DNA of 64,000 nucleotides from Parcubacteria bacterium C7867-005 (lineage in GTDB: Bacteria > Patescibacteriota > Minisyncoccia > Phycocordibacterales > Zambryskibacteraceae): positions 190,984 through 254,983 of the forward strand of contig LFCO01000003.1 of assembly GCA_001189165.1 (NCBI GenBank), read 5' to 3'. Made by a program: the position numbers and the translations under genes. Positions 43 to 26,995 of this stretch are shown here, piece by piece. The first letter of the stretch is position 1. Each line of letters begins with the position of its first letter. The notes beneath the pieces are model-generated. The model did no database searches. It was not told the origin of the DNA and saw nothing but the letters and a program-made list of their open reading frames with translations.

Positions 43-1449
43 TTATAAATTTATTGCTTTGGGCAGGTTCACACTCTGGAAATAATCCAATGTTTTTTCT
101 GAATCACCCTCACCAAGAACTTTTTTCGTATCAACTATTTCTGTATGTAGATTTTCTGGTTTACCGTTTAATAAATTCAAGAAGTGAGACAAGAAAGTGG
201 TGGCATATTCACCTTTACCCAAAGAGAAACTCACTATGATACCCTCGTTCACTACTTCGACACCGAATATTTCGGGTCTATCTTTGGTCATAATGTCCCT
301 CTTGGTGATGATGATACTGCGAAAGGGGCGTAGGTTATTCCAGTTTGGAGGGAAGATGCCGACACTCTCCATATCATCTGCATATGGGAGCCAGTCGTTC
401 TTATCGGCGCTTGTGAAGAGAGGTAGGCTTTTTGGAGGTTCTATACCAGCCATGATGTATGAGCTGATCTTTCTGTTGTATAGATAGGATGCGAGAGCGC
501 TCACCCATAGATTTACTTGCTCTTCGATCTTTAATAGTGCCCCGACAAAATCCTGTGGTTTGTCTACGAGGTGTTCTACTACTTTTATCTCACTGGGGAA
601 TATGAGAGGGAATTCGTTCAATCTCTCTAGAACCATACCCCAGTTGGGAGCGAGGCTTATGATCTCTTTTCTTCGTTCGATAAAGTAGGGGATTTCGCGC
701 AGACCAGCATCGGCTATGAGCCCCCTGATCGCTTTCTCATAATCGCCCTTGAGTATAGAGAGGGCCCATTTGTAGTTATTTAGTCTAGGAGCACCAAAAC
801 GCTGGAGGTAAAAGAAATTATAAAAACCATTTTGTTCTACACGCTTCACGGCCTCAAGGGCATTTTTCATCTTGGTCTCATCGTGTATATCTTCTCCGAT
901 GCGGAGCAGGATGGTGAATTTGTTGCCTTTCAGCGTGCCTTTTTGCATCACTCCTTTACCTGCATGTATATCTTTTAGGATGAAGTGCGGGGATTTGATG
1001 CTCAGCACTCTTTCCTTGGGTATTCCTCTAAAAGAAAGGATCTGTGCCGTAAGTGCGTCTTTGTCTTTGATCCCTGCATATTGGATTTTATCTTTGGTTG
1101 TTTCTAACAATTTGGACAGTTCTTCTACTGCTTCAATAGTAGACAAGCCACATTTGATCAAGGTGGCATATACGGTTCCACCCTCCTCATCACCAACTCC
1201 ATCTCCGATGATTGATATGTTGGTTTGTTTCCCGTCTAAAGAGGTTTCTTCTACTATAAAGTCACTGGGCATGAATTTCAGGAAGGCTCTGGGTAGATTG
1301 TCTTTGCCTGGTATATGAATACCCAGTTTTTCTAGGGTTTCTCTGTCATCCACCCAAGTCGTTTCAGGGAAAAGTTCTGGTTTAAGTGCTTTTTCTTTCG
1401 CCAATTTCTCCATCTCCAGAGCTTTGAGGTGTATGAGGTCTGATTTCAT
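43..1449 (-). CDS. truD: tRNA pseudouridine(13) synthase TruD
   Basis: 468 aa ORF; TruD-type motifs (FMPSDFIVEE; catalytic GxKD as YAGIKDKDA). Confidence 0.8.
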   Translation of the reverse strand: MKSDLIHLKALEMEKLAKEKALKPELFPETTWVDDRETLEKLGIHIPGKDNLPRAFLKFMPSDFIVEETSLDGKQTNISIIGDGVGDEEGGTVYATLIKCGLSTIEAVEELSKLLETTKDKIQYAGIKDKDALTAQILSFRGIPKERVLSIKSPHFILKDIHAGKGVMQKGTLKGNKFTILLRIGEDIHDETKMKNALEAVKRVEQNGFYNFFYLQRFGAPRLNNYKWALSILKGDYEKAIRGLIADAGLREIPYFIERRKEIISLAPNWGMVLERLNEFPLIFPSEIKVVEHLVDKPQDFVGALLKIEEQVNLWVSALASYLYNRKISSYIMAGIEPPKSLPLFTSADKNDWLPYADDMESVGIFPPNWNNLRPFRSIIITKRDIMTKDRPEIFGVEVVNEGIIVSFSLGKGEYATTFLSHFLNLLNGKPENLHTEIVDTKKVLGEGDSEKTLDYFQSVNLPKAINL

Positions 1450-1545: not shown

Positions 1546-1887
1546 ATGACCCGATCTTCGAAGAAAGGCCCATATGTTGACCCTCGTGTTTTGAAAAAGA
1601 TAGAGGGCAAGAAACCCAGTACTACTGGGGTTATTAAGACATGGGCCCGTGCCTGCCAGATCTCTCCGGAGATGCTCGGTTTCACCTTCGGAGTTCACAA
1701 CGGCAAGGACCATATAGAGGTTTTCGTCACTGAGGACATGATCGGCCACAGACTAGGTGAATTTTCTCTAACCAGGAAGTTCGTCAAACACGGTGGTAAG
1801 ATGCAAAAAGACCTAGAAATCAAGAAGAAGGAGTCAGAAATCGCCGCAGCTAAGGCAGTTAAAGGCGCCGACGCATCAAAGAAATAA
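1546..1887 (+). CDS. rpsS: 30S ribosomal protein S19
   Basis: N-terminal KKGPYVD...; conserved S19 core; position ahead of rplV. Confidence 0.95.
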
Positions 1888-3842: not shown

Positions 3843-4214
3843 ATGGTACAACCACAATCCATCGTCCAAATCGCAGACAACTCCGGAGGCAAGATCGGCA
3901 GAGTTTTCAAAGTGCTCGGCAGTTCAAAGAAGCGATACGCTTCGATCGGAGAGATCGTGGTTCTCTCAGTCCAGAAAGCAGAACCCAGAAAAGCGGTCAA
4001 GAAAAAGGACATCCTCTATGCAGTGGTGGTCCGCCAAAAGGCACCTTTCAGGCGAGCAGACGGTACCCACATTCGCTTTGATGAGAACGCGGTAGTGATC
4101 CTCGACAAAGCCAAAAAAGAGCCACAAGCAGGACGTGTGTTCGGTCCCATCCCTCGAGAAATAGGAGAGAAGGGTTTCCAGAAAATTATTTCTTTGGCTC
4201 AAGAAGTCGTATAA
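3843..4214 (+). CDS. rplN: 50S ribosomal protein L14
   Basis: MVQPQSIVQIADNSG... canonical L14. Confidence 0.95.
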   Translation: MVQPQSIVQIADNSGGKIGRVFKVLGSSKKRYASIGEIVVLSVQKAEPRKAVKKKDILYAVVVRQKAPFRRADGTHIRFDENAVVILDKAKKEPQAGRVFGPIPREIGEKGFQKIISLAQEVV

Positions 4215-4219
4215 AATTT

Positions 4220-4528
4220 ATGAAAATCAAGAAAAACGACACAGTATTCATACGCTCAGGCAAAGACAAAGGCAAGACTGGTAAGGTCTTGAAGTCCTTT
4301 CCTCGTGACGCCAAGGTTCTGGTCGAAGGCGTGAATCTCCGCAAGAGACACAACAAAGCCAAGAAGTCAGGGGGTAAGGGTGAGATAGTGGAACTCGCTT
4401 TCCCAATCCCTGTATCAACCGTTTCTCTACTTGATCCAAAGACCAAGAAGCCAACCCGTGTAGGGATGAAGATGGTCGGAGGTAAAAACGTTCGTGTGGC
4501 CAAGAAGTCTGGAGCAAGTATCGAATAG
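4220..4528 (+). CDS. rplX: 50S ribosomal protein L24
   Basis: KOW-type L24 sequence, operon order. Confidence 0.9.
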   Translation: MKIKKNDTVFIRSGKDKGKTGKVLKSFPRDAKVLVEGVNLRKRHNKAKKSGGKGEIVELAFPIPVSTVSLLDPKTKKPTRVGMKMVGGKNVRVAKKSGASIE

Positions 4529-4555
4529 TTCAAATCCTTCACTATAAATAAAATT

Positions 4556-5089
4556 ATGGAAACTCTAAAACACAAAACAGAAAAAGCGTTCGAAGTTCTG
4601 AAAACCAAAGCAGGTTATAAGAACAAGATGCAAGCACCCAAGGTCACCAAAGTAGTTATCTCTGTTGGTATTGGATCACTCAAGGATAAAGCCAAGATCA
4701 AATTGATCGACAACCGCCTAGCTTTGATCACCGGACAGAAAGCTGCTCCTCGTACAGCGAAGGTGGCTATCGCTAACTTCAAATCAAGAGAGGGTGACCA
4801 CATAGGTTACCAGGTGACTCTACGTGGTGCTCGTATGCACGACTTCCTCGAGAGGTTGATCCATATCGCCCTTCCTAGAACCAAAGACTTCCGTGGCATT
4901 TCTAAGAACTCCGCAGATGAGATGGGCAACTACACCCTAGGTATCAAAGAGCACACCATCTTCCCAGAGACAGCGGACGAAGAGCTCAAAGACGTATTCG
5001 GTATGGCTATCACCGTGGTCACCACAGCCAAATCCAAAACAGAAGTTCAAGATTTCCTCGAACACCTCGGTTTTCCTTTCAAGAAATAG
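4556..5089 (+). CDS. rplE: 50S ribosomal protein L5
   Basis: L5-like, operon order. Confidence 0.9.
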   Translation: METLKHKTEKAFEVLKTKAGYKNKMQAPKVTKVVISVGIGSLKDKAKIKLIDNRLALITGQKAAPRTAKVAIANFKSREGDHIGYQVTLRGARMHDFLERLIHIALPRTKDFRGISKNSADEMGNYTLGIKEHTIFPETADEELKDVFGMAITVVTTAKSKTEVQDFLEHLGFPFKK

Positions 5090-5117
5090 TCCAAAAAATT
5101 TATTACACACATCAAAA

Positions 5118-5141
5118 CCCCGCCAAAAGCGGGGATTTCTT
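5118..5141 (+). terminator. intrinsic terminator after rplE
   Basis: Stem CCCCGC/GCGGGG with loop CAAAA, followed by ATTTCTT. Confidence 0.6.
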
Positions 5142-5165
5142 GATAAGTGCAGTTTTTAAAGATAC

Positions 5166-5194
5166 TTGACAAAGTATACACTTATGACATTATT
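5166..5194 (+). promoter_or_regulatory. putative sigma70-like promoter for the GC-rich insert
   Basis: TTGACA, 17 nt spacer, ATTATT, upstream of CDS 5253. Confidence 0.35.
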
Positions 5195-5252
5195 ACGGGC
5201 GGAACATAGGCAGTAGTCCTTTACACCACCCAATCCATTCGAGGCACCGTAT

Positions 5253-5804
5253 ATGAGCAACTCTGTTGCGTTGGTCGCCATTGATCGTGTGGCGAAAGAT
5301 GTTCGCGGGGAGATCAGCGTCAGCGATCGACTGGTCACGCGAATCGCTGCAAAAAGGAATATCACGCCCGGCGAAGCGAGGGAACGAATCATCGCTTCTA
5401 CGGTGCGTTCGGCATTGAAGTTGTCGAACAACGACGAGAAGATCGCCACGACAGCGCTCGTGATCGTCCACGGAAAGTCGAATCGACTGCCGCAGTGCAC
5501 CAGGCTTCTTCGGAAGCATGATGCAAGTACGGTGTCCGTGGCGTATGAGGTGAAGGGCGAGCTCGCGATGTCGAATGTCTCACTCCGTGTGCTCTGTCAG
5601 TTCGTGGATTTCACTGACAGAGATATGGAGGGTGAGGTGTCCGAGCTTCGAGACGTGCTTGAAGAGATCGCGATGAAAGTGCCGTCGAAAGAGTACGAGT
5701 GGTCTCTCCATCATCGTCTGCGCGAAGGTCTTGAGCGGGGTCGCCCTCTCGCGGCCATGCGTGATGAGATCATGGATGAGATCGATCGCAGGATTTCTCC
5801 ATGA
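5253..5804 (+). CDS. hypothetical protein in the GC-rich insert
   Basis: 183 aa ORF, markedly higher GC than flanks; no recognisable domain. Confidence 0.55.
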   Translation: MSNSVALVAIDRVAKDVRGEISVSDRLVTRIAAKRNITPGEARERIIASTVRSALKLSNNDEKIATTALVIVHGKSNRLPQCTRLLRKHDASTVSVAYEVKGELAMSNVSLRVLCQFVDFTDRDMEGEVSELRDVLEEIAMKVPSKEYEWSLHHRLREGLERGRPLAAMRDEIMDEIDRRISP

Positions 5805-6793
5805 GGAATCCTATCGATGTCTTGTTTGGATCTCGTGTCATCTTCCATCTCAGGCGTCAACCAGCGGCGTTGAAACGCATCGCTGAGAGGATCAAGCCGT
5901 TGCTCATGGCGGCGGTTCATCCGGATCGCAACCATGACATCGGCCCAGAGGAAGCGGCTGAGATCAGTGAGGCGTATCAACGTCTCGTCTCTATGGCGCC
6001 GGAAGATCTTGAACCTCTCATCGCCGAGTTCTTGCGTCAGGATCGTGGAGAGGCGCTAAGGATCCAAATTCGAGATCTCCAGCAGTCAAAGGTTGGTCTT
6101 GAATTGGTTACAAGGAAGCAAGAAGCGAAGATCAAGGACCTTTCGGAAGAACTGTTTCGAGAGCGCGACGGGCGCAACAGATCCTTTGCCGCAGCGTTGC
6201 TCTGGTTCCAGTCCAGCTCAACATTCGAGCCAAGGGGTCTCGAGATGCTCGATGAAAATGCCATTCCTCGCGGGGCTATCCCCCGTGGGATGTTGCATCA
6301 TTATCGAGTTGTCGTCGAGCTAAATGACGGCAAGTTCAGATCTTACCAATTTGATCTTGCTGGCAGGGTTCGGCTCACAGTCTCTACGAGAAACATCCGT
6401 GATGCACGGGAAGCGTATCTTTTCCAAAACCACCCGCTTCCAAATAGCCGGATAAAGGTCAGTTCGAAGCGGGACAACCTTATCCTCATTGGATCTGCGA
6501 AGCGCCTTCCGAAGGGGATCGTTTTGTCACGTGCAATTGAAGATGGCTGGGCGAAGCCTTATGTCGAGAAGGGGATGCAGCCAGTTTTTGTATCCCTGAA
6601 TCGTCATGGCGTGCTCGAGATCGATCCGCTCAACAACCCTCTGTTGGATGGGGTTGGTACAATTGTTGACCTGATCGATCTGGATAGTGCCCGACGGAAA
6701 CTGGTCGGGCCGGGTGGTCGGGGGAGTGGAAATAGGGATAACCTTAAAACCCGTCTTGCAGAGCACAAGCAACGCAAGCGCCAGAAGAAGTAA
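5801..6793 (+). CDS. J-domain (DnaJ-like) protein, C-terminal region unknown
   Basis: LLMAAVHPDRNHDIGPEEAAEISEAYQRL matches the J-domain helix II-III region with HPD motif; overlaps the previous ORF by 4 nt (ATGA). Confidence 0.65.
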   Translation: MRNPIDVLFGSRVIFHLRRQPAALKRIAERIKPLLMAAVHPDRNHDIGPEEAAEISEAYQRLVSMAPEDLEPLIAEFLRQDRGEALRIQIRDLQQSKVGLELVTRKQEAKIKDLSEELFRERDGRNRSFAAALLWFQSSSTFEPRGLEMLDENAIPRGAIPRGMLHHYRVVVELNDGKFRSYQFDLAGRVRLTVSTRNIRDAREAYLFQNHPLPNSRIKVSSKRDNLILIGSAKRLPKGIVLSRAIEDGWAKPYVEKGMQPVFVSLNRHGVLEIDPLNNPLLDGVGTIVDLIDLDSARRKLVGPGGRGSGNRDNLKTRLAEHKQRKRQKK

Positions 6794-6807
6794 TCTGGCG
6801 CTTTTTT
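6778..6807 (+). terminator. intrinsic terminator after the J-domain gene
   Basis: GCGCCAG / CTGGCGC stem followed by TTTTTT; overlaps the stop codon. Confidence 0.7.
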
Positions 6808-6944
6808 AATATAAAACATGAGCAAGATCACCCTGCCATGACTATCGTGGTTATAGTGGGGAGGAGGGTAAGAGCCTTATTTGACAAGGGGGGACTGGGC
6901 TGATAAGCTGAATTACCAGCTTTTCGAAGCTATTTTTATTAAAT

Positions 6945-7130
6945 ATGGCAAAAACATCAGTAATCGCAAGGTCAAAAAAGATCCCCAAGTTCAGCACTCG
7001 GGCTACTCATCGTTGCTTCAAGTGTGGCCGTGGAAGGGGTTTTATGAGGGACTTTGATCTTTGCCGTATTTGTTTCAGAGAACTTGCGAACGAAGGCAAG
7101 ATTCCTGGAGTTAAAAAATCTTCCTGGTAA
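6945..7130 (+). CDS. rpsZ: 30S ribosomal protein S14 type Z (zinc-binding)
   Basis: 61 aa with CxxC...CxxC, S14-like. Confidence 0.9.
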
Positions 7131-7141
7131 TTTCATTTTCT

Positions 7142-7528
7142 ATGGATCCTATCGCAAACATGCTCGTACAGTTAACCAACGCAGGCTCAGCCGGCAGGGA
7201 TACTGTTTCTGTTCCTTACTCTCAAATCAAAGAAAATATCGCTAATGTTCTAAAAGCAGAAGGTTTTATAAAGGGCGTAGAAAAGAAAATGGAATCCAAG
7301 AAACCAGTTCTCTCCATAGAACTCATTCTTGAAAATCGTATTCCAAAGATCAAAGGGATCAAGAGACTTTCTAAAACATCCAAACGTGTCTACAAGAAAT
7401 CTGCAGAAATCCGCCCAGTGAAAAATGGATATGGCGCGATCGTTCTATCCACTCCAAAAGGAGTCATGTCAGGCAGAGATGCCAAGAAACAGAAACTTGG
7501 AGGCGAAGCGCTTTTCAATATCTGGTAG
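7142..7528 (+). CDS. rpsH: 30S ribosomal protein S8
   Basis: MDPIANMLVQLTNA... canonical S8. Confidence 0.95.
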   Translation: MDPIANMLVQLTNAGSAGRDTVSVPYSQIKENIANVLKAEGFIKGVEKKMESKKPVLSIELILENRIPKIKGIKRLSKTSKRVYKKSAEIRPVKNGYGAIVLSTPKGVMSGRDAKKQKLGGEALFNIW

Positions 7529-7552
7529 ACCGAGAAGCTCAAAAATAAATAT

Positions 7553-8086
7553 ATGTCACGTATAGGCAAACAAATCATCACCCTTCCAGAAAAAACCGAG
7601 ATCTCATTCTCAGGTTCTACTGTCTCAGTCAAAGGACCACTTGGAGATCTTTCCAAAATTTTCAATCCAATCATCGAAGTAAAGGTAGAAGGCAAAGAAG
7701 TCACTCTAAAACCAAAACGAGAAACTTTAGAATCCAGAGCATTGTGGGGATCATACGCTTCACATCTAAAGAACATGGTCTCAGGGGTAAACAAACCATT
7801 TGAGAAGAAACTCATCCTAGAAGGCATCGGTTATAAATCAGAAGTAAAAGGCGACACTATCGTACTCGCACTCGGATTTTCTCACCCAGTAAATGTTTCT
7901 GTACCAAAGGGACTAAAGGTCACCGCTGAAAAAAACATCATCACTGTATCTGGTATAGACAAAGAAGCGGTTGGAGAATTTACAGCCAAGCTCAGAGCCC
8001 TAAAGAAACCAGAACCTTATAAGGGTAAGGGCATGAGGTATGAGGGCGAAGTGATCAAACGCAAGCAGGGCAAGAAATCTGCATAG
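7553..8086 (+). CDS. rplF: 50S ribosomal protein L6
   Basis: MSRIGKQIITLP..., L6 two-domain pattern. Confidence 0.95.
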   Translation: MSRIGKQIITLPEKTEISFSGSTVSVKGPLGDLSKIFNPIIEVKVEGKEVTLKPKRETLESRALWGSYASHLKNMVSGVNKPFEKKLILEGIGYKSEVKGDTIVLALGFSHPVNVSVPKGLKVTAEKNIITVSGIDKEAVGEFTAKLRALKKPEPYKGKGMRYEGEVIKRKQGKKSA

Positions 8087-8430: not shown

Positions 8431-9075
8431 ATGGACGAAACACTAAACACAACAGAAGAGAAAGTTATCAGCACTGATACACCGGTGGTCTCTGATGTTG
8501 TACCCGGAGTTGTTCCTGCAGCAGCAGATAAGCCAGCTTTTAATCGAGGAGATAGAGGGGGAGACAGGGGTCGCGGTAAAAACAATAATCGCAGATCACC
8601 AAGGAGAGATGGTCAGAGGAGTAAACCAGAATTTGATCAGAAGATCGTCAGTCTTCGTCGAGTGACCCGTGTGACCTCCGGAGGACGCCGTTTCGCTTTC
8701 TCTGCTTGTGTTGTAGCTGGTAATAAGAAGGGTATGGTAGGCGTAGGACAAGGTAAGGCATCTGACACACCACTAGCTATAGAGAAGGCTTTCAGAGATG
8801 CTCGCAAGAATATGATAACCGTGAATATGACAAAAAATATGTCTATTCCCCACGAAGTAGATGCCAAGTATTCTGCCTCTGTGGTCAAGATCATGCCGGC
8901 TCCAGGCAAAGGTATCCTCGCAGGAAGTTCTGTCCGTACAGTGATCGAACTTGCAGGACTCAAAGAGATTTCTTCTAAACTACTTTCAAGATCCAAGAAC
9001 ACCGTGAACAATGCATATGTAGCTATCGCTGCTTTGAAAAAGCTCGATCATACTAAGATAAGACATTCCAAATAA
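8431..9075 (+). CDS. rpsE: 30S ribosomal protein S5 with low-complexity R/G/D-rich N-terminal extension
   Basis: S5 core (VTRVTSGGRRFAFSACVVAGNKKGMVGVG); N-terminal 70 aa repetitive RGDRGGDRGRG. Confidence 0.9.
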   Translation: MDETLNTTEEKVISTDTPVVSDVVPGVVPAAADKPAFNRGDRGGDRGRGKNNNRRSPRRDGQRSKPEFDQKIVSLRRVTRVTSGGRRFAFSACVVAGNKKGMVGVGQGKASDTPLAIEKAFRDARKNMITVNMTKNMSIPHEVDAKYSASVVKIMPAPGKGILAGSSVRTVIELAGLKEISSKLLSRSKNTVNNAYVAIAALKKLDHTKIRHSK

Positions 9076-9079
9076 ATTT

Positions 9080-9520
9080 ATGCAACTCCATACACTAAAA
9101 GCAAAGACAAAACGAGTCACATCACAGCAGGTTGGTCGTGGTGGTAAACGAGGTAAAACTTCTGGTAAAGGTACCAAGGGCCAGAACGCTCGTGCTGGAC
9201 GTAAGAAGCGCCCAGAGCTCAGAGACTTCATCAAACGATTTCCTAAACTTCGTGGACGTGGAGTTTCTCCCTTCAAGTCAAGACAAGTTAAACCCCTCGC
9301 AGTTAATCTGGGTTCAGTGGAGGCGATGTTTGCCCTCGGTGAAGTAGTGAACAAAGATTCGATTATCTCAAAAGGTATAGTTTCAGCTAAAAAAGCTAAG
9401 GGTTCCACAATAAAAATTCTAGGTAACGGAGATTTCACCAAAAAACTTTCTTTCGAAGGAGTTTTGGTTTCTGAATCAGCCAAAAAAGCTATAGAGGGAG
9501 CAGGGGGAAGTATAAAATAA
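9080..9520 (+). CDS. rplO: 50S ribosomal protein L15
   Basis: L15-like glycine/arginine-rich N-terminus; follows rpsE directly, with no L30 gene between. Confidence 0.9.
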   Translation: MQLHTLKAKTKRVTSQQVGRGGKRGKTSGKGTKGQNARAGRKKRPELRDFIKRFPKLRGRGVSPFKSRQVKPLAVNLGSVEAMFALGEVVNKDSIISKGIVSAKKAKGSTIKILGNGDFTKKLSFEGVLVSESAKKAIEGAGGSIK

Positions 9521-15554: not shown

Positions 15555-16064
15555 CTAGGCCTTCTCCAAGATAGTGGTCATGCCTTTTGGGCTTTTTTTA
15601 GCTGGATCTGCAACTTTGTACTCGACGGTCACTAACTTGAGCATCCTTTCCAGGCGTTCCTTGAGGAATTTTTCATCTAGGTATTTAGCCCTACCAGGTA
15701 AGAATAGGTCGATTTTGACCCTATTTCCTTCACCGAGCCACTCAGATGTTTTCCTGGCCTTGAGGTTTAGGTCGTGGTCACCTGTACCTAGTTTGACCTG
15801 AACTGTCTTTACTTCCACGGAGTGAGACTTGGATTTGGCTTGCTTCTGCTTCTTGTTTTCCTCGTACTGATACTTACCAAAGTCGGCTATCTTGGCGACT
15901 GGGGGAGTTGCGTTGGGGGATATCTCTATTAAATCTAGATCAAGATCTCGGGCATTTTTTAAGGCTTCTTCGAGGGTGACTACACCAAAATTCTCTCCTT
16001 TTGGACCTATGACACGGAGTTCTCGTGCCCTGATCTGCATATTAACTCTGACTTGTGTACTCAA
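15555..16064 (-). CDS. infC: translation initiation factor IF-3
   Basis: IRARELRVIGPKGE... IF3 N-domain and C-domain; exact start uncertain (TTG 16064 or ATG 16040). Confidence 0.85.
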   Translation of the reverse strand: MSTQVRVNMQIRARELRVIGPKGENFGVVTLEEALKNARDLDLDLIEISPNATPPVAKIADFGKYQYEENKKQKQAKSKSHSVEVKTVQVKLGTGDHDLNLKARKTSEWLGEGNRVKIDLFLPGRAKYLDEKFLKERLERMLKLVTVEYKVADPAKKSPKGMTTILEKA

Positions 16065-16169
16065 AATCTTTATTCTGCGGTTTATTTCTAATTGGGCAAA
16101 TTATACCAGTGAGGAGGCCTTCCCACAAGGAAGGAGGGGATTCGAGTATTTGGTGTAGAGCAATTTTGC

Positions 16170-16640
16170 ATGTACAATTTTTGTATGGAACTAAAACACA
16201 AAACGCCAACCCTTGATGAAGTGAAGGAAAAGAGACCGATCCTCCGCAACCCCGTAAGAGAAACCAAGCTCTCTTTGCCGTACTTGGACGCATTCGCGCT
16301 TGTCATCACACGCAAGGTGGGTTCGATGGGTTTCTTTTTCTTGCTTTGTTTATGGACGGTTGCCTGGCTTCTGTGGAATGTTTATGCACCGATCGAATTG
16401 AGGTTTGATCCAGCGCCCGCATTTGTCATCTGGTTGTTTATTTCTAACCTCATACAGTTAGTACTTTTGCCTATGGTTATGGTGGCACAGAATATCGAAG
16501 GGAGGGTTGCTGATCAGAGAGCACAAGATGATTTTGAGATAAACAGTAGATCAGAAAAAGAAATAGAAGTTATCCTCGCTCACCTTGAAAATCAAAACGA
16601 ACTCCTCATGGAGCTTTCTAAGAAGATAGATAAAAAATAA
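16170..16640 (+). CDS. DUF1003-like membrane protein
   Basis: Two TM helices followed by conserved FDPAPAFVIWLFISNLIQLVLLPMVMVAQN, coiled-coil tail. Confidence 0.6.
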   Translation: MYNFCMELKHKTPTLDEVKEKRPILRNPVRETKLSLPYLDAFALVITRKVGSMGFFFLLCLWTVAWLLWNVYAPIELRFDPAPAFVIWLFISNLIQLVLLPMVMVAQNIEGRVADQRAQDDFEINSRSEKEIEVILAHLENQNELLMELSKKIDKK

Positions 16641-16705
16641 GATAGACAAAATAAACAAGAAAGTCGCACTACGTGCGACTGGTATCTATCCGGTATCCCA
16701 CTGAC

Positions 16706-16757
16706 CCCCGTGTCAACCTGCCAGGTTGACACGGGGGCTACTGTTTTTGCTTTTCCT
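16706..16757. terminator. strong hairpin/terminator (second hairpin at 16663-16681)
   Basis: Perfect 14-bp stem CCCCCGTGTCAACC/GGTTGACACGGGGG followed by CTACTGTTTTTGCTTTT; a second perfect hairpin AGTCGCAC-TAC-GTGCGACT lies upstream. Confidence 0.6.
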
Positions 16758-17013
16758 TTCCCAACACCTTGATTCTGAGATCGAGACCGATCGACTTGAG
16801 GTTTGCCTGAAGCTTGCCGAGAGCGGTGAACGATAGTCCAGTCGCCGTGCCGGTGATGGCTATCCATGGACCATCGTCTTTTTCGAACTCCGTGCCAAAG
16901 GCGGCGTCTATATCGCCCATGGGCCACTTACCTCTGCCGACGGTGACAGGCGCAAAGTCACGCTTTGCATCAAAGAACACAACTTCGAGGGGAAGGTTCA
17001 CCCGGTATCGCAT
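16738..17013 (-). CDS. hypothetical protein (GC-rich module, downstream partner)
   Basis: 91 aa ORF in a GC-rich segment; no domain recognised. Confidence 0.45.
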   Translation of the reverse strand: MRYRVNLPLEVVFFDAKRDFAPVTVGRGKWPMGDIDAAFGTEFEKDDGPWIAITGTATGLSFTALGKLQANLKSIGLDLRIKVLGKEKQKQ

Positions 17014-17108
17014 GTCGTTCTCTGGGTTGGAGTGGTCTATGTTCGATACTATGCTTGTGGTTAATCAGTGTCAATGAAGAAGCGCACACCGTGAGGTGTG
17101 CGCTGTTG

Positions 17109-17657
17109 CTACCGAGGAATCGGTGCTGAGTCGGGCATGGTGGACGTCTCGATTTGATCGAGGATCTTCTGCTCATCCTGCGGACCGATCTCACCTCGGT
17201 TCACCAGGCGATAGAGGGCTTCCCTCGCGCCGGCCTTGGTGTTGGCCTCAGTGCCCTCCACCACCTGGTCGTTCTTGAGGATCGCGCTTTTCGGCGGATC
17301 CCCATCAGCCATGAGGAATTCGTACGAGCTCTTCTGGGGGGAGACGGCCGGGGCCAAGATCACGATGATTGCCCTGATTCCCTTGACTTCATCGAGGGAT
17401 GTGCGGTGGGGGAGGCCGGACGAGCGGATGTCGTTCTCGATTGCCGCTTTGTCTTTCAGCGGGATTCTTCCGGCGCGGAGGTTCTTCTCAAGGTGTTCGA
17501 TGGCCTGGCTCTGGCTTGTGTATGGGCCAGAAGCGGGCATCCCCTCCGGATCGAAGTAGTGCCCGTGCCGTGTGTGCAGATTGCAGGGCTCGCATCGACG
17601 GAAGCTGTGCCTCCCGGTAAAATCGGTGCCGGCTGCTGCTATTGCCAAACTCGCCAT
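17109..17657 (-). CDS. hypothetical protein with Cys/His-rich motif (GC-rich module)
   Basis: ORF with GAGGAC RBS before ATG 17657; motif FRRCEPCNLHTRHGHYFDPEG; higher GC than flanks. The antisense ORF 17154..17687 is judged spurious. Confidence 0.5.
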   Translation of the reverse strand: MASLAIAAAGTDFTGRHSFRRCEPCNLHTRHGHYFDPEGMPASGPYTSQSQAIEHLEKNLRAGRIPLKDKAAIENDIRSSGLPHRTSLDEVKGIRAIIVILAPAVSPQKSSYEFLMADGDPPKSAILKNDQVVEGTEANTKAGAREALYRLVNRGEIGPQDEQKILDQIETSTMPDSAPIPR

Positions 17658-17753
17658 GGGCAGGTCCTCAGAGTAGGAGACGCGTGAGATTCTAATTAAG
17701 AGCTGGTTTGAGAATACGATAATATACTTTCGAAGATGTGTCAATTAAACAAA

Positions 17754-17777
17754 AACCACCATCTGGTGGTTTTTGTT
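17754..17777. terminator. bidirectional terminator downstream of ssrA
   Basis: AACCACC-ATCT-GGTGGTT flanked by an A-run and a T-run. Confidence 0.6.
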
Positions 17778-17801
17778 TAAGGTTGTTAGACCTTTATTCT
17801 G

Positions 17802-18202
17802 TGGAGGTGGTGGGATTGAACCCACGTCCATGAGGATATTTGAAACGGGTCTACAAGGCGTAGTTTAGCTTGGTGTTTAGATCTATGAACTAAAAGCTAG
17901 ACAAAACATTCATAGATCGAGCTCGATCTTAGATCCTGAAGTGAGCAGTTTCCGGATTGGAGTCAGGCAGATTATGCGCCCCCTAACTCATGCCTGGCAG
18001 TGAGGATAGAGAACGTTCGGTACGAAGAGTATTAAGCTCTTACGTATGCGAATGCGAAATCGTTTGCTCCATAAAATGGAGAAACTATTGACTTCGCCTG
18101 TGCAAGAGTTGATTTTGCACTTAGGGTTCCAACCTTTTAAAGAGTTGTTGGAGCTCTGCCTCGCACGGGTCAAAGATGTCTCGTGTCAAAACTGACACCC
18201 CC
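17802..18202 (-). ncRNA. ssrA: transfer-messenger RNA (tmRNA)
   Basis: Minus strand: 5' GGGGGUG pairs with 3' CACCUCC including the G3:U70 wobble; T-arm GGGUUCAAUCCCACC and discriminator A; lies immediately downstream of smpB; candidate tag reading frame ANDFAFAYVRA ending in TAA around 18032-18067. Confidence 0.75.
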
Positions 18203-18211
18203 ATATTTAAA

Positions 18212-18649
18212 TTACAACGATCGTTTCAGGTCCCTTTCGACATCGCGTTTTTTGATACTCTCCCGTTTGTCGAATTTCTTCTTTCCACGGGCGATAGCGA
18301 GGTCGAGCTTCAGGAACCTACCTTTATTATACACCGAAATAGGCACTATTGTCAATCCTCCTGTTCCCTCCGCATTTTTTAGTATTTCTATCTCTGGTTT
18401 GGATAATAGGAGTCTGCGGGCACGAAGTGGATCATAGTCCTTTGGAGCATTATTCGGTTGATGAGGTTCGATGTTCGCATTCAATAAATAAGCTTCATCT
18501 CCACGGATACCCACATAAGCCCCGGCCAGAGAGAGTTTACCTTCGCGGACAGACTTCACTTCGGTACCAGAAAGTTCGAGCCCTGCGTGCAGATGCTCGA
18601 GGATCTCATAGTTGAACTTGGCTTTGCGGTTTGTCGCATTCGTAGTCAT
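18212..18649 (-). CDS. smpB: SsrA-binding protein SmpB
   Basis: 145 aa; SmpB-like sequence (GTEVKSVREGKLSLAGAYV...). Confidence 0.9.
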   Translation of the reverse strand: MTTNATNRKAKFNYEILEHLHAGLELSGTEVKSVREGKLSLAGAYVGIRGDEAYLLNANIEPHQPNNAPKDYDPLRARRLLLSKPEIEILKNAEGTGGLTIVPISVYNKGRFLKLDLAIARGKKKFDKRESIKKRDVERDLKRSL

Positions 18650-18694
18650 ACGGCCATCATAGCAAAATCCAGATTTTTCGGTATAATACGGTCC

Positions 18695-20659
18695 ATGTCG
18701 AAGCCTAATCTCCCAGGTAAAGATTCCAAAAAGAACGGCAAGAAACTTTTCAAGGTTGTTATTAAAGAAGTCAAAGGCAAGAACCCGCTTGGAGGTATAG
18801 GTGGCGGTTTTTTGAACCAGGGCGTACTTTCGATTTTGATTTTCTTCTTGCTTATAACTTCATATTCGTATCTATCTGGTAATGCTGATAAAAAGGAATC
18901 TATCTCGCTCTCTGTTCTCTCACAGAATGTAAGTGCAGAACTCGTCACCTCTATCACTGTAAAGGGAGATGAACTCGAAGCTCTCTACAAAGATGGTTCA
19001 GTGAAAACTTCAAAGAAAGAAGAGGGCACTGCGCTCACTACTACGTTCAGCAACTACGAAGTGTCCAAAGAGGCTCTGTCTAAAGTAGAGATAGAAGTCA
19101 AAAATGACAGAGGTTTTATGTATTGGATACTTTCACTTGCACCAATACTCTTGCCGATCGCTTTTATAGTTTTCTTTATTTGGTTCCTTTCTAGGCAGAT
19201 GAAGGGTGCAGGTATGCAAGCGATGTCCTTTGGACAATCCAAGGCACGTATGACCTTGCCCGACGACAAGACAAACCTGGTGACATTCAAAGACGTGGCC
19301 GGTGCAAAGGAAGCCAAAGAAGAATTGTCAGAGATCGTGGATTTCTTGAAAAATCCTAAAAAGTTTTTGGACATAGGTGCACGCATACCTAAAGGAATAC
19401 TCCTCATGGGAGCACCTGGTACTGGTAAGACATTACTCGCACGTGCTGTTGCCGGAGAGGCTGGTGTAGCTTTCTTTTCTATCTCCGGATCAGAATTCGT
19501 AGAGATGTTCGTCGGTGTTGGTGCTTCTCGTGTAAGAGATTTATTTGATATAGCCAAGAAATCTTCTCCAGCGATTATTTTCGTGGATGAGATAGATGCG
19601 GTAGGTCGTGTTCGAGGAACGGGGGTCGGGGGAGGGAACGATGAGCGCGAACAGACTTTGAACCAGATTTTGGTAGAGATGGATGGGTTCGAGCCAAACG
19701 AGAAAGTGATAGTGATGGCAGCGACGAACAGGCCGGACGTACTCGACCCAGCGCTCTTGCGCCCAGGCCGTTTTGACAGACGAGTGACACTCGATCTTCC
19801 GGACCGCGCAGATCGTGAAGAGATTTTGAAAATACATGCACGCAAGAAACCATTTGCAGAAGATGTGCACCTCCCACTCATCGCAGAACGTACGCCCGGA
19901 TTTTCTGGCGCTGATCTGTATTCACTCATGAACGAAGCGGCGATTCTCGCCGCGAGAGAAGACAGAACCAAAGTCGGTCAGTTCGATCTTATCCGTTCTA
20001 TAGAGAAGGTGATGCTCGGACCAGAACGTCGTTCGCATATACTTTCTAAGACAGAAAAAGAATTAACCGCATATCACGAAGCTGGTCATGCTGTACTCGC
20101 ATCAGTGCTCCCATACGCAGATCCTGTCCACAAAATCTCTATCATTTCTCGAGGTAGGGCTGCTGGTTATGTCCTCAAACTTCCACTCGAAGATAGAAAG
20201 CTTCAATCCAAAAAGGAATTCATAGATGACATCACTGTCGCTCTCGGTGGATATGTAGTAGAGAAGATGGTTTATGGAGATTTGACCACTGGTCCATCCA
20301 ATGACTTGCAGGTTTCTACTGCACTCGCGAGAGACATGGTCACTAAATATGGGATGAGTGAAAAGCTTGGACCAATCGCCCTCGAATCCGCAGGCGGACG
20401 AGTTATCTATGGTGCTGGGGTTGAAGACAAAGGGTATTCAGAGAGAGTGAGTGCAGAGATCGACGCAGAGGTGTCGAAGATCATGAGCGAAGCGATGAAG
20501 AATGCGGAGAAGATTATCAAAGAGCACAAAAAACTTTTGGAAGTGATCGCTAAACGTCTGGTTGAAAAGGAATCAATAGAACAAAAAGAATTCGAAGAGA
20601 TACTCATAGCAAATGGTATCACTCCGAAAAAGAAAAAAGACATCGAGCATCAAATATAA
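18695..20659 (+). CDS. ftsH: ATP-dependent zinc metalloprotease FtsH
   Basis: AAA+ Walker [21 protein letters not shown], second region of homology, HEAGHA zinc motif; TATAAT at 18682 only 7 nt before ATG 18695. Confidence 0.95.
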
Positions 20660-20665
20660 ATAAGG

Positions 20666-20693
20666 TCCCCCGAGCGTTAGCTCGGGGGATTTG
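20666..20693 (+). terminator. intrinsic terminator after ftsH
   Basis: TCCCCCGAGC-GTTA-GCTCGGGGGA then TTTGA. Confidence 0.6.
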
Positions 20694-21108
20694 ATACCAC
20701 GTAGTGGTCGAAGATATCCTCGCCCACTCGGGCGAGGAACCATGGTCGGCGATTCGTCCGGCAGTCGTGAAGGTCGATGAATCCGGGTTGATCCGCGATC
20801 CTCCGCCACCACTGATCCTTCTTACCGACACGCACGAAGGCTCTCATGGCACCGTGGAAGTCGCTCCACTCGCTGAACTTGTACCAAGTCTGCATGTCTG
20901 TCGCCACAGAGATGAGCACGATGATCCGTGCCTTACCCTCTGGGGGACAACTCACTCTGACAAGCTCGACGAGCTCTCCGCCCCCATGACGGTAGGAGAA
21001 GATCATCTGTGGCCTGAAGCGCAGGTTCCCGGTCTTCTGCCCTCCATCGGTCAGATGGCTGACCGTTTCCACCGCCTGGACAGCCGACGTTTCCATGGTT
21101 TGGGGCAT
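20677..21108 (-). CDS. hypothetical protein (GC-rich mini-island next to a tRNA)
   Basis: 143 aa ORF in a GC-rich stretch; strand choice uncertain because the antisense ORF 20704..21237 is also open. Confidence 0.35.
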   Translation of the reverse strand: MPQTMETSAVQAVETVSHLTDGGQKTGNLRFRPQMIFSYRHGGGELVELVRVSCPPEGKARIIVLISVATDMQTWYKFSEWSDFHGAMRAFVRVGKKDQWWRRIADQPGFIDLHDCRTNRRPWFLARVGEDIFDHYVVSNPPS

Positions 21109-21196
21109 GTGGGTCTCGGTTCGAGTGGGTACATCTCTCCTCTGAACCTATCAAAAACAGGTATACATGTCCACTTCCAACCATCCACAATACGTG

Positions 21197-21270
21197 TCCA
21201 CCCTCTTGGATTCGAACCAAGGACCCCCGAGGTATAAGCTCGATGCTCTAACCAACTGAGCTAAGGGTGG
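21197..21270 (-). tRNA. tRNA-Ile (anticodon UAU)
   Basis: Cloverleaf: acceptor CCACCCU/AGGGUGG, D-arm UAGCUCAGUUGGUUAGAGC, anticodon stem UCGAG/CUCGG with loop CUUAUAC (UAU), T-arm CUUGG-UUCGAAU-CCAAG, discriminator A73; no encoded CCA. Confidence 0.8.
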
Positions 21271-26829: not shown

Positions 26830-26916
26830 GCGGAGAGAGCGAGATTCGAACTCGCGGTTCCAATTAAGGAACGACGGTTTAGTAAACCGTTGATTTAAAC
26901 CACTCATCCATCTCTC
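26830..26916 (-). tRNA. type II (long variable arm, Ser-like) tRNA with apparent anticodon ACU
   Basis: Acceptor GGAGAGA/UCUCUCC, discriminator G, D-arm UGGAUGAGUGGUUUAAAUC, anticodon stem ACGGU/ACCGU with loop UUACUAA, long variable arm, T-arm GCGAG-UUCGAAU-CUCGC; anticodon is one base from GCU. Confidence 0.6.
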
Positions 26917-26995
26917 CAAGGATTGGCCCTAATATCCTACCAGAATTTAGGCCCAAAATAAGCCCATCCTCATTTGTGCTATCCTGTATGAGAAA

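Follow-up and report, generated by a model that had tools for sequence, protein, structure and literature searches.

The rplE/rpsZ junction of a ribosomal protein cluster in Parcubacteria bacterium C7867-005 carries a two-gene cassette, orfA-orfB, with the encoded proteins annotated as AB200_02710 and AB200_02715. The cassette lies in a 64,000-nucleotide (nt) stretch of contig LFCO01000003.1, referred to here as the window. The reading we favour, with moderate confidence, is that the pair forms an autonomous module lodged in an insertion hotspot between rplE and rpsZ, and that OrfB is a J-domain protein that would recruit the host chaperone DnaK.

An insertion hotspot within the ribosomal protein cluster

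The inserted segment (~5090–6872, 1.78 kb) parts rplE from rpsZ in a cluster that runs on the forward strand from rpsS to rpsE and on through rplO, secY, adk, and map, with the rplE-rpsZ spacing extended to 1855 nt from the usual few tens of nt. A scan for ribosomal protein L5 among the GTDB species representatives recovered 46 Parcubacteria/Zambryskibacteria loci, and the junction gap was compared in 43 of these. The gap is bimodal, measuring 24–119 nt in 22 relatives and 266–2064 nt in 21, with two further loci beyond these 21 also carrying cargo at this position. The other 12 junctions between rpsS and rpsE, which serve as a control, reach 201 nt at most in these genomes, leaving rplE/rpsZ as the sole variable junction among the 13. 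On a neighbour-joining tree built from a concatenation of seven ribosomal proteins, genomes with long and short gaps are intermingled, and gap length frequently differs between sister taxa (94 nt in L014 and 1220 nt in L021; 25 nt in L047 and 1214 nt in L052), which argues for many independent events. This comparison shows that rplE/rpsZ is a recurrent, lineage-wide insertion hotspot in this clade. An earlier, sequence-only reading of the window had considered foreign DNA in this operon to be unusual, which holds for bacteria generally, but not for a clade in which 21 of 43 relatives carry inserts.

At least eight different cargo types occupy the long gaps, including RelE/YafQ/HigB-like toxin pairs in three non-sister genomes, PaaX_M/Cas2-like proteins, small membrane proteins, CxxC proteins, an amidase-like gene (Table 1), and several ORFans, with the presence of like cargo in distant lineages suggesting exchange between hotspots. 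Homologues of orfA or orfB are present at this junction in none of the 43 relatives, the junction alone having been compared, and the claim that the pair had been inserted into the operon is upheld to that extent. The gaps of the window's nearest relatives on the tree, L022 and L020, and of L058 measure 371, 630, and 1057 nt and hold content other than the cassette, and only positions 6873–6944 of the window, the ~72 nt preceding rpsZ, are alignable to the intergenic DNA of relatives. These comparisons show the cassette to be an insertion relative to these genomes.

The source genome is a bin from a groundwater metagenome (563 kb, 42% GC; PMC4508563), and the GC content changes abruptly at both ends of the insert, as might be seen if a GC-richer fragment of another organism had been joined into the operon during metagenome assembly. 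Such a chimera is extremely improbable, however, because independent assemblies of 21–23 related genomes carry inserts exactly where the boundaries of the cassette fall. The contig is furthermore 257.7 kb in length with Parcubacteria-type flanks on both sides of the gene pair, and homologous cassettes are found among housekeeping genes in other contigs resembling those of the candidate phyla radiation (CPR).

The tolerance of this junction to cargo is probably explained by an internal promoter preceding rpsZ. An extended −10 element (TGnTA(A/G)nnT) is present in 40 of 43 genomes, compared with 3.8% of background 90-nt windows, and is accompanied at the right spacing by a TTGAMW −35 element in 24 of 43, compared with 0.56% of the background. 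The position of the −10 element relative to the rpsZ ATG is −42 to −44 in most relatives with gaps of at least 48 nt, and −18 to −21, overlapping the rplE stop codon, in genomes with gaps of 24–27 nt. As the promoter is kept in relatives with or without inserts, it predates the insertions, and as it is positioned downstream of the insertion point, cargo would leave transcription of rpsZ-rpsH-rplF intact. The sequence-only reading had pointed to a separate rpsZ promoter with a TTGACA at 6881, which is indeed present as part of the conserved promoter; given its fixed distance from rpsZ in 40 of 43 relatives, this promoter did not arise through the insertion and is instead ancestral.

In the minimal-gap genomes (L023, L027, L028, L032, L037, L038, L040, L043, L046, L047, and L053), the extended −10 (TAATGTGTTAAAAT), which overlaps the stop codon of rplE, ends ~10 nt upstream of the rpsZ start codon. 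From this position the rpsZ mRNA is predicted to be leaderless or nearly so, and the −35 element to lie within the rplE coding sequence. The ~35 nt preceding rpsZ in the window (6910–6944) and in relatives L014–L058 contain a short hairpin of varying stem (AGCTT/AAGCT, GGCT/AGCC, AAGGC/GCCTT), followed by a run of five to six T residues, with no obvious Shine-Dalgarno sequence. RNAalifold returned no consensus structure for the rpsZ leader, and no covariation is claimed for the hairpin, which could represent a leader/attenuator or an S1-type loading site.

Composition and expression signals of the cassette

The gene pair proposed from the sequence alone, of 183 and 330 amino acids (aa) with an ATGA overlap (ccATGAgg), is borne out by the coordinates of the two open reading frames (ORFs), and the hairpins taken as bracketing terminators are both present (Table 1). 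Most of the other copies examined likewise close with a hairpin and a T-run. A promoter-like sequence belonging to the cassette is likewise present, although such sites are not above chance when considered alone, with two found compared with 3.8 expected. A TTGAC-type hexamer does, however, lie upstream of most cassette copies examined. The ribosome-binding region preceding orfA is kept at the DNA level even though protein identity between cassettes is only 40–50%, with GAGGCACCGTwT immediately followed by ATGAGC in the window, L001, L006, L012, and L013, and near variants of this sequence in L003 and L005. An Rfam scan of positions 4000–8000 matched no RNA family. Taken as a set, these predicted signals show ~5090–6872 to be an apparently autonomous bicistronic accessory module, composed of a promoter, orfA, an overlapping orfB, and a terminator.

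The cassette has a GC content of 53.9% (orfA 55.6%, orfB 52.9%) with 300-nt peaks of up to 56.7%, compared with a mean of 44.0% for the window (standard deviation of 2.9 for windows of the same size) and 38–49% for the flanking ribosomal genes, and no other segment of this length in the 64 kb has a higher GC content (top 0.16%). The contrast noted previously is therefore real, but had been overstated at 55–60% against 40%. The GC content of third codon positions (GC3) is also raised, at 0.65 in orfA and 0.57 in orfB compared with 0.31–0.54 in ribosomal genes, indicating that amino-acid composition is not the sole cause of the GC excess.

A divergent J-domain in OrfB

The assignment of a J-domain to OrfB, made initially from its N-terminal sequence, is upheld by the family to which the protein belongs and by the invariance of its HPD motif, whilst the single protein falls under the Pfam cut-off. 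The search of OrfB with the J-domain profile PF00226, proposed in the sequence-only reading as a check, gave no match to the full-length protein at an expect value (E) of 10 or below, and only 14.3 bits (E = 0.046) for the N-terminus alone, against a gathering threshold of 27.8 bits. Alignment to the E. coli DnaJ J-domain by BLASTP was confined to 31 residues around the HPD motif, and a Foldseek search of the PDB with the OrfB model yielded nothing significant (E > 0.6), with no J-domain among the top matches. The Pfam and Foldseek results weigh against a J-domain, and would be expected if the HPD match were a coincidence and OrfB had no connection with Hsp70.

That OrfB is such an unrelated protein is nonetheless very unlikely. 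Across 22 very divergent family members the only invariant columns are H40, P41, D42, and A58, with E57 nearly so, and these correspond to the HPD loop and the “(S/T)EA” of helix III. An N-terminal profile of the family (79 positions, 20 members) searched against 177,635 PDB sequences places ~40 solved J-domain chains ahead of any other fold (E = 1.5e-5 to 0.02), including those of DNAJA1, Sis1, T. thermophilus DnaJ2, E. coli DnaJ, CbpA, Jac1, and Tim14, with the alignments in register on the HPD motif and the EAY..L part of helix III, and with the first unrelated match at E = 0.56. When members are searched individually, PF00226 matches 13 of 20 (best E = 1.2e-4), all under the gathering score. 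In the AlphaFold (AF2) model of OrfB, built from the alignment of 22 sequences (predicted local distance difference test, pLDDT, of 87.6), the N-terminus comprises short helices at residues 4–8 and 11–16, a helix at 21–38, the HPD loop, and a helix at 49–64, with the HPD motif thus placed in the loop of a predicted helix-loop-helix. Additionally, the top Foldseek match of the model in BFVD is a DnaJ/Hsp40 protein of Cafeteria roenbergensis virus (probability 0.94, E = 0.17). From the profile searches and the model we conclude that OrfB bears what appears to be a genuine but highly divergent J-domain.

OrfB has no Pfam match to DnaJ_C or DnaJ_CXXCXGXG, and has no glycine/phenylalanine (G/F) region. 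As the protein is without the G/F, zinc-finger, and C-terminal domains of class A and B DnaJ proteins, the family comparisons show it to be a predicted class C (type III) J-domain protein, belonging to a rare and fast-evolving family.

The remainder of OrfB, and OrfA

The J-domain is followed in the OrfB model by a single long helix, which is probably a coiled-coil or spacer, and by a beta-rich domain for which a profile found no match in the PDB or Pfam, and Foldseek none in the PDB at E of 0.6 or below. Single-sequence scans of OrfB with PHROGs, Pfam, and NCBIfam gave nothing significant, and PADLOC gave no match. The protein is strongly basic (isoelectric point, pI, of 10.1, net charge +15), and about half of the J-protein family carry a Lys/Arg-rich tail like that of OrfB; the OrfA homologues are mostly acidic.

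An OrfA-like ORF of 195–216 aa lies directly upstream of the J-domain protein at every locus fetched, with the stop and start codons of the pair usually overlapping (ATGA or TGATG) or otherwise closely spaced. This shared arrangement shows OrfA to be the seemingly obligate upstream partner of the J-domain protein. OrfA contains an NRLPQC motif, and neither its single sequence nor a 10-member profile retrieved anything significant from Pfam, PHROGs, PADLOC, NCBIfam, or the PDB, with the PADLOC match to DpdD being weak (E = 0.022, 11 bits). GrpE and CbpM were considered as identities for OrfA and dropped, as it matches neither.

Rarity, genomic contexts, and origin

OrfB homologues are scarce, with a word-indexed search of 5.8 billion proteins returning two, and an exhaustive search with a hidden Markov model (HMM), covering 1.84 billion cluster representatives, bringing the total to 22. 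Scans of IMG/VR, INPHARED phages, PLSDB plasmids, and JGI metagenome contigs revealed no relatives of the cassette. The orfA-orfB pair occupies at least five contexts (Table 1), and the GC content of the cassette is above that of the host DNA in nine of the ten other loci. The foreign origin proposed for the insert is plausible, although a GC content of ~50–54% in almost all hosts may be intrinsic to the genes.

Where copies occupy the same site, as in L003 and L006/L007, the neighbouring genes are mostly 68–89% identical, compared with 49% for OrfA and 32% for OrfB, and these syntenic copies are no closer to one another than are non-syntenic copies. Such divergence indicates that the two genes either evolve very rapidly or have been replaced in situ. 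The thrS genes adjoining the cassette in L003 (8102–9838) and L006 (6041–7264) share 46% identity, with products of 578 and 407 aa respectively, and the thrS/cassette/dnaE region may itself be prone to replacement.

Several observations count against a mobile module. No ORFs other than orfA and orfB are found in the insert, which leaves its mobility unexplained given that the ORF list includes no integrase or transposase, and searches for flanking direct or inverted repeats, terminal repeats, and a target-site duplication around the insert returned only short matches at chance level. The thrS/dnaE position is stable in L003, L006, and L007, whose DnaE proteins are 77% identical, and the cassette retains a GC content of ~50–54% in most hosts whatever the GC content of the host, both of which fit a long vertical residence. 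Together with the location of all copies among housekeeping genes, these points would be accommodated by a lineage-specific co-chaperone pair of long standing, passed on vertically and simply relocated beside rplE, with a GC excess that stems from constraints on its own amino acids and codons rather than from a foreign source. We consider this origin unlikely, with the junction free of the cassette in all 43 relatives, including the closest, L022 and L020, and with the contexts of the pair being unrelated to one another. Moreover, just 22 clusters were found despite the thousands of Parcubacteria genomes that are public, the GC excess extends to GC3 rather than being limited to first codon positions, and syntenic copies are no more alike than non-syntenic ones. 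An autonomous module inserted at the hotspot is thus still preferred.

Proposed function

We infer that the cassette serves to recruit DnaK to a target set by OrfA and by the basic C-terminus of OrfB. In the mechanism proposed from the sequence, the J-domain of OrfB would dock on the host DnaK (Hsp70) and trigger its ATPase, with the 74-residue helix either dimerising or spacing the protein, and with the basic beta-rich domain and Lys/Arg tail binding a polyanion, which may be nucleic acid or the mostly acidic OrfA. Translational coupling would supply OrfA in a fixed stoichiometry, and OrfA may be an adaptor that defines the target, or may modulate OrfB, by analogy with the action of CbpM on CbpA. 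To be set against this mechanism, in addition to the Pfam and PDB results above, are the role given to OrfA, which is purely inferred, and the failure to find a DnaK signature within the 64-kb window.

The rarity, patchy contexts, and rapid divergence of the module, and the toxin-antitoxin-like cargo found at the same site, suggest an accessory role, possibly selfish or defensive, rather than a housekeeping one. A ribosome-associated (zuotin-like) role, prompted by the location in a ribosomal operon, was considered and dropped, as other copies adjoin dnaE, smc, and ftsZ.

A more specific possibility is that the pair forms a conflict module, acting in abortive infection or defence or as a toxin-antitoxin-like addiction system, in which one product is harmful and the J-domain links its activation or neutralisation to DnaK. 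The hotspot is shared with RelE-family toxin pairs and Cas2-like proteins, the genes are bicistronic and translationally coupled, their distribution is rare and patchy, and they diverge very fast relative to their neighbours. Furthermore, the Hsp70 system can feed immunity, as illustrated by a bacterial NLR-related protein with DnaJ-dependent phage sensing (PMC12169576). However, neither protein matches a toxin, nuclease, or defence domain in PADLOC, PHROGs, or Pfam, both exceed the typical size of type II toxin-antitoxin components, and other copies of the cassette are without defence genes alongside, so that we regard a conflict role as rather doubtful. The same tentative standing applies to its fullest form, in which OrfA-OrfB would be an undescribed two-component conflict system operating via a cryptic J-domain, and rplE/rpsZ a miniature “defence islet” kept viable by the rpsZ promoter. 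Recruitment of DnaK by an accessory module, whatever the target, is the function we favour.

Comparison with known systems

J-domain proteins decide where Hsp70 acts, and bacterial examples cited under class C (type III) include E. coli DjlA, HscB, and the CbpA-CbpM pair. Compared with the class C proteins and the general J-domain protein literature (PMC10410713, PMC13254874), OrfB similarly has an N-terminal J-domain with an HPD motif followed by unrelated targeting regions, is basic like CbpA, and, as in cbpAM, is paired with a small potential modulator that is predicted to be co-transcribed. In contrast to these proteins, the J-domain of OrfB is too divergent for the Pfam threshold, its C-terminal domain is without known relatives, and the cassette occurs in only a few CPR-like genomes. 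OrfA is not similar to CbpM, and its gene precedes that of the J-domain protein, the reverse of the order in cbpAM.

J-domain proteins are also found in mobile and viral genomes, as in the case of Rki of phage RB43 and the DnaJ-like proteins of giant viruses. OrfB resembles these in being accessory and horizontally distributed, and would likewise exploit the host Hsp70, although no phage genes lie near the cassette and no homologue was found in IMG/VR, INPHARED, or PLSDB.

As with other integration hotspots between core genes, rplE/rpsZ has conserved flanks, varied cargo that is partly of toxin-antitoxin type, and repeated, independent gain or loss. It differs in lying inside the spc operon, normally among the most rigid of gene arrays, and in having no tRNA, integrase, or repeat at the site, with its tolerance seemingly stemming from the pre-existing promoter. 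Insertions described in the ribosomal clusters of Gammaproteobacteria and Bacilli are sporadic and fall largely between transcription units, and the rplE-rpsN-rpsH segment is known for recombinational replacement of S14, as in S. pneumoniae (PMC8046335). Here too a few genes are inserted at a transcription-unit boundary, however this boundary is internal to the spc operon as defined in E. coli, and inserts occupy it in roughly half of the species sampled from a single CPR clade. The J-domain protein architecture and its partner are new, and in the literature searched we found no description of a junction-specific hotspot in the ribosomal cluster.

The OrfB family is invisible to standard Pfam annotation, and would be missed by large J-domain surveys; it presents a new architecture with a seemingly obligate partner in minimal genomes, where any accessory gene is notable. 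CPR phylogenomics and binning treat the ribosomal block as a rigid marker, syntenic and present in single copy, yet one of its junctions is a frequent landing site. The hotspot is therefore relevant to operon evolution, to marker extraction, to chimera checks based on GC shifts, and to finding CPR accessory genes.

Table 1. Features of the rplE/rpsZ region, other contexts of the orfA-orfB pair, and cargo at the same junction in relatives. Positions refer to the 64-kb window unless a relative's locus is named; dG, folding free energy.
Feature	Position	Strand	Evidence or remark
rplE (L5), conserved left flank of hotspot	4556–5089	+	ORF; 64–82% identical to the L5 proteins of the 46 relatives
GC-rich hairpin after rplE, terminator-like, weak T tail	5118–5134	+	dG −14.4 kcal/mol, z −3.9
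Cassette promoter-like site, TTGACA-N16-(TG)CATTAT	5166–5193	+	10/12 matches
Ribosome-binding region before orfA, GAGGCACCGTAT	5238–5252	+	DNA-level conservation among cassettes
orfA	5253–5804	+	183 aa
orfB	5801–6793	+	330 aa
orfB residues 1–66, divergent J-domain (predicted)	5801–5998	+	HPD at residues 40–42, nt 5918–5926
orfB residues 67–140, single long helix (74 residues; predicted)	5999–6220	+	AF2 model; 10-residue block pLDDT means 85–98
orfB residues 141–302, beta-rich basic domain (predicted; ~160–300 in model)	6221–6706	+	AF2 model; pI 9.8
orfB residues 303–330, Lys/Arg-rich C-terminal helix, plus stop codon	6707–6793	+	net charge +7.8
Cassette intrinsic terminator (predicted), hairpin across orfB stop codon, then T6	6776–6803	+	dG −17.0, z −4.0
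Ancestral rpsZ promoter (predicted)	6881–6909	+	TTGACA 6881–6886, 17-nt spacer, TGA-TAAGCT 6901–6909
Leader hairpin AGCTT-TTCG-AAGCT, then T-run, just before rpsZ ATG	6918–6931	+	
rpsZ (type-Z S14), conserved right flank	6945–7130	+	NF005974, E = 1.1e-29
Pair context: rplE/rpsZ	this window		
Pair context: downstream of smc	L001		
Pair context: thrS/dnaE	L003, L006, L007		
Pair context: hisS-like/ybeY-ftsA-ftsZ	L013		
Pair context: beside Exo_endo_phos gene	L005		
Cargo: antitoxin-like ORF and RelE/YafQ/HigB-like toxin	L021 5154–5651; L051 4532–5090; L055 4402–4954		E = 7e-5, 2.5e-4, sub-threshold but coherent
Cargo: PaaX_M/Cas2-like proteins	L049 4608–5177 (−); L057 472–1038		opposite orientations; E = 1e-18 to 1e-20
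Cargo: 66–68-aa membrane protein	L031, L035, L044		
Cargo: CxxC protein	L054, L055		
Cargo: amidase-like gene, 412 aa	L041 4538–5776	−	

Other features of the window

The S10-type operon is broken in the window, with a divergent truD-like pseudouridine synthase gene (43–1449, reverse strand; TIGR00094, E = 2e-36) preceding rpsS (1546–1887, forward strand) where rplB would be expected, a break that among the 46 relatives is common to L022 and L058 only. Further along the cluster, rplO comes directly after rpsE (8431–9520) without an intervening rpmD (L30), in line with a report that CPR bacteria often lack uL30 (PMC9297842).

In 1.5-kb windows, the only other stretches above 50% GC are 16000–18600, which includes a tmRNA gene (17799–18202, reverse strand; Rfam 79.8 bits), and 19550–21200, which lies inside an ORF of 690 aa (18587–20659). 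ARAGORN additionally called a tRNA-Ile with the anticodon TAT at 21196–21270 and a tRNA-Ser with the anticodon ACT at 26830–26917, both on the reverse strand; these anticodons are unusual in bacteria, and the two calls may be miscalls or decoders with modified bases.

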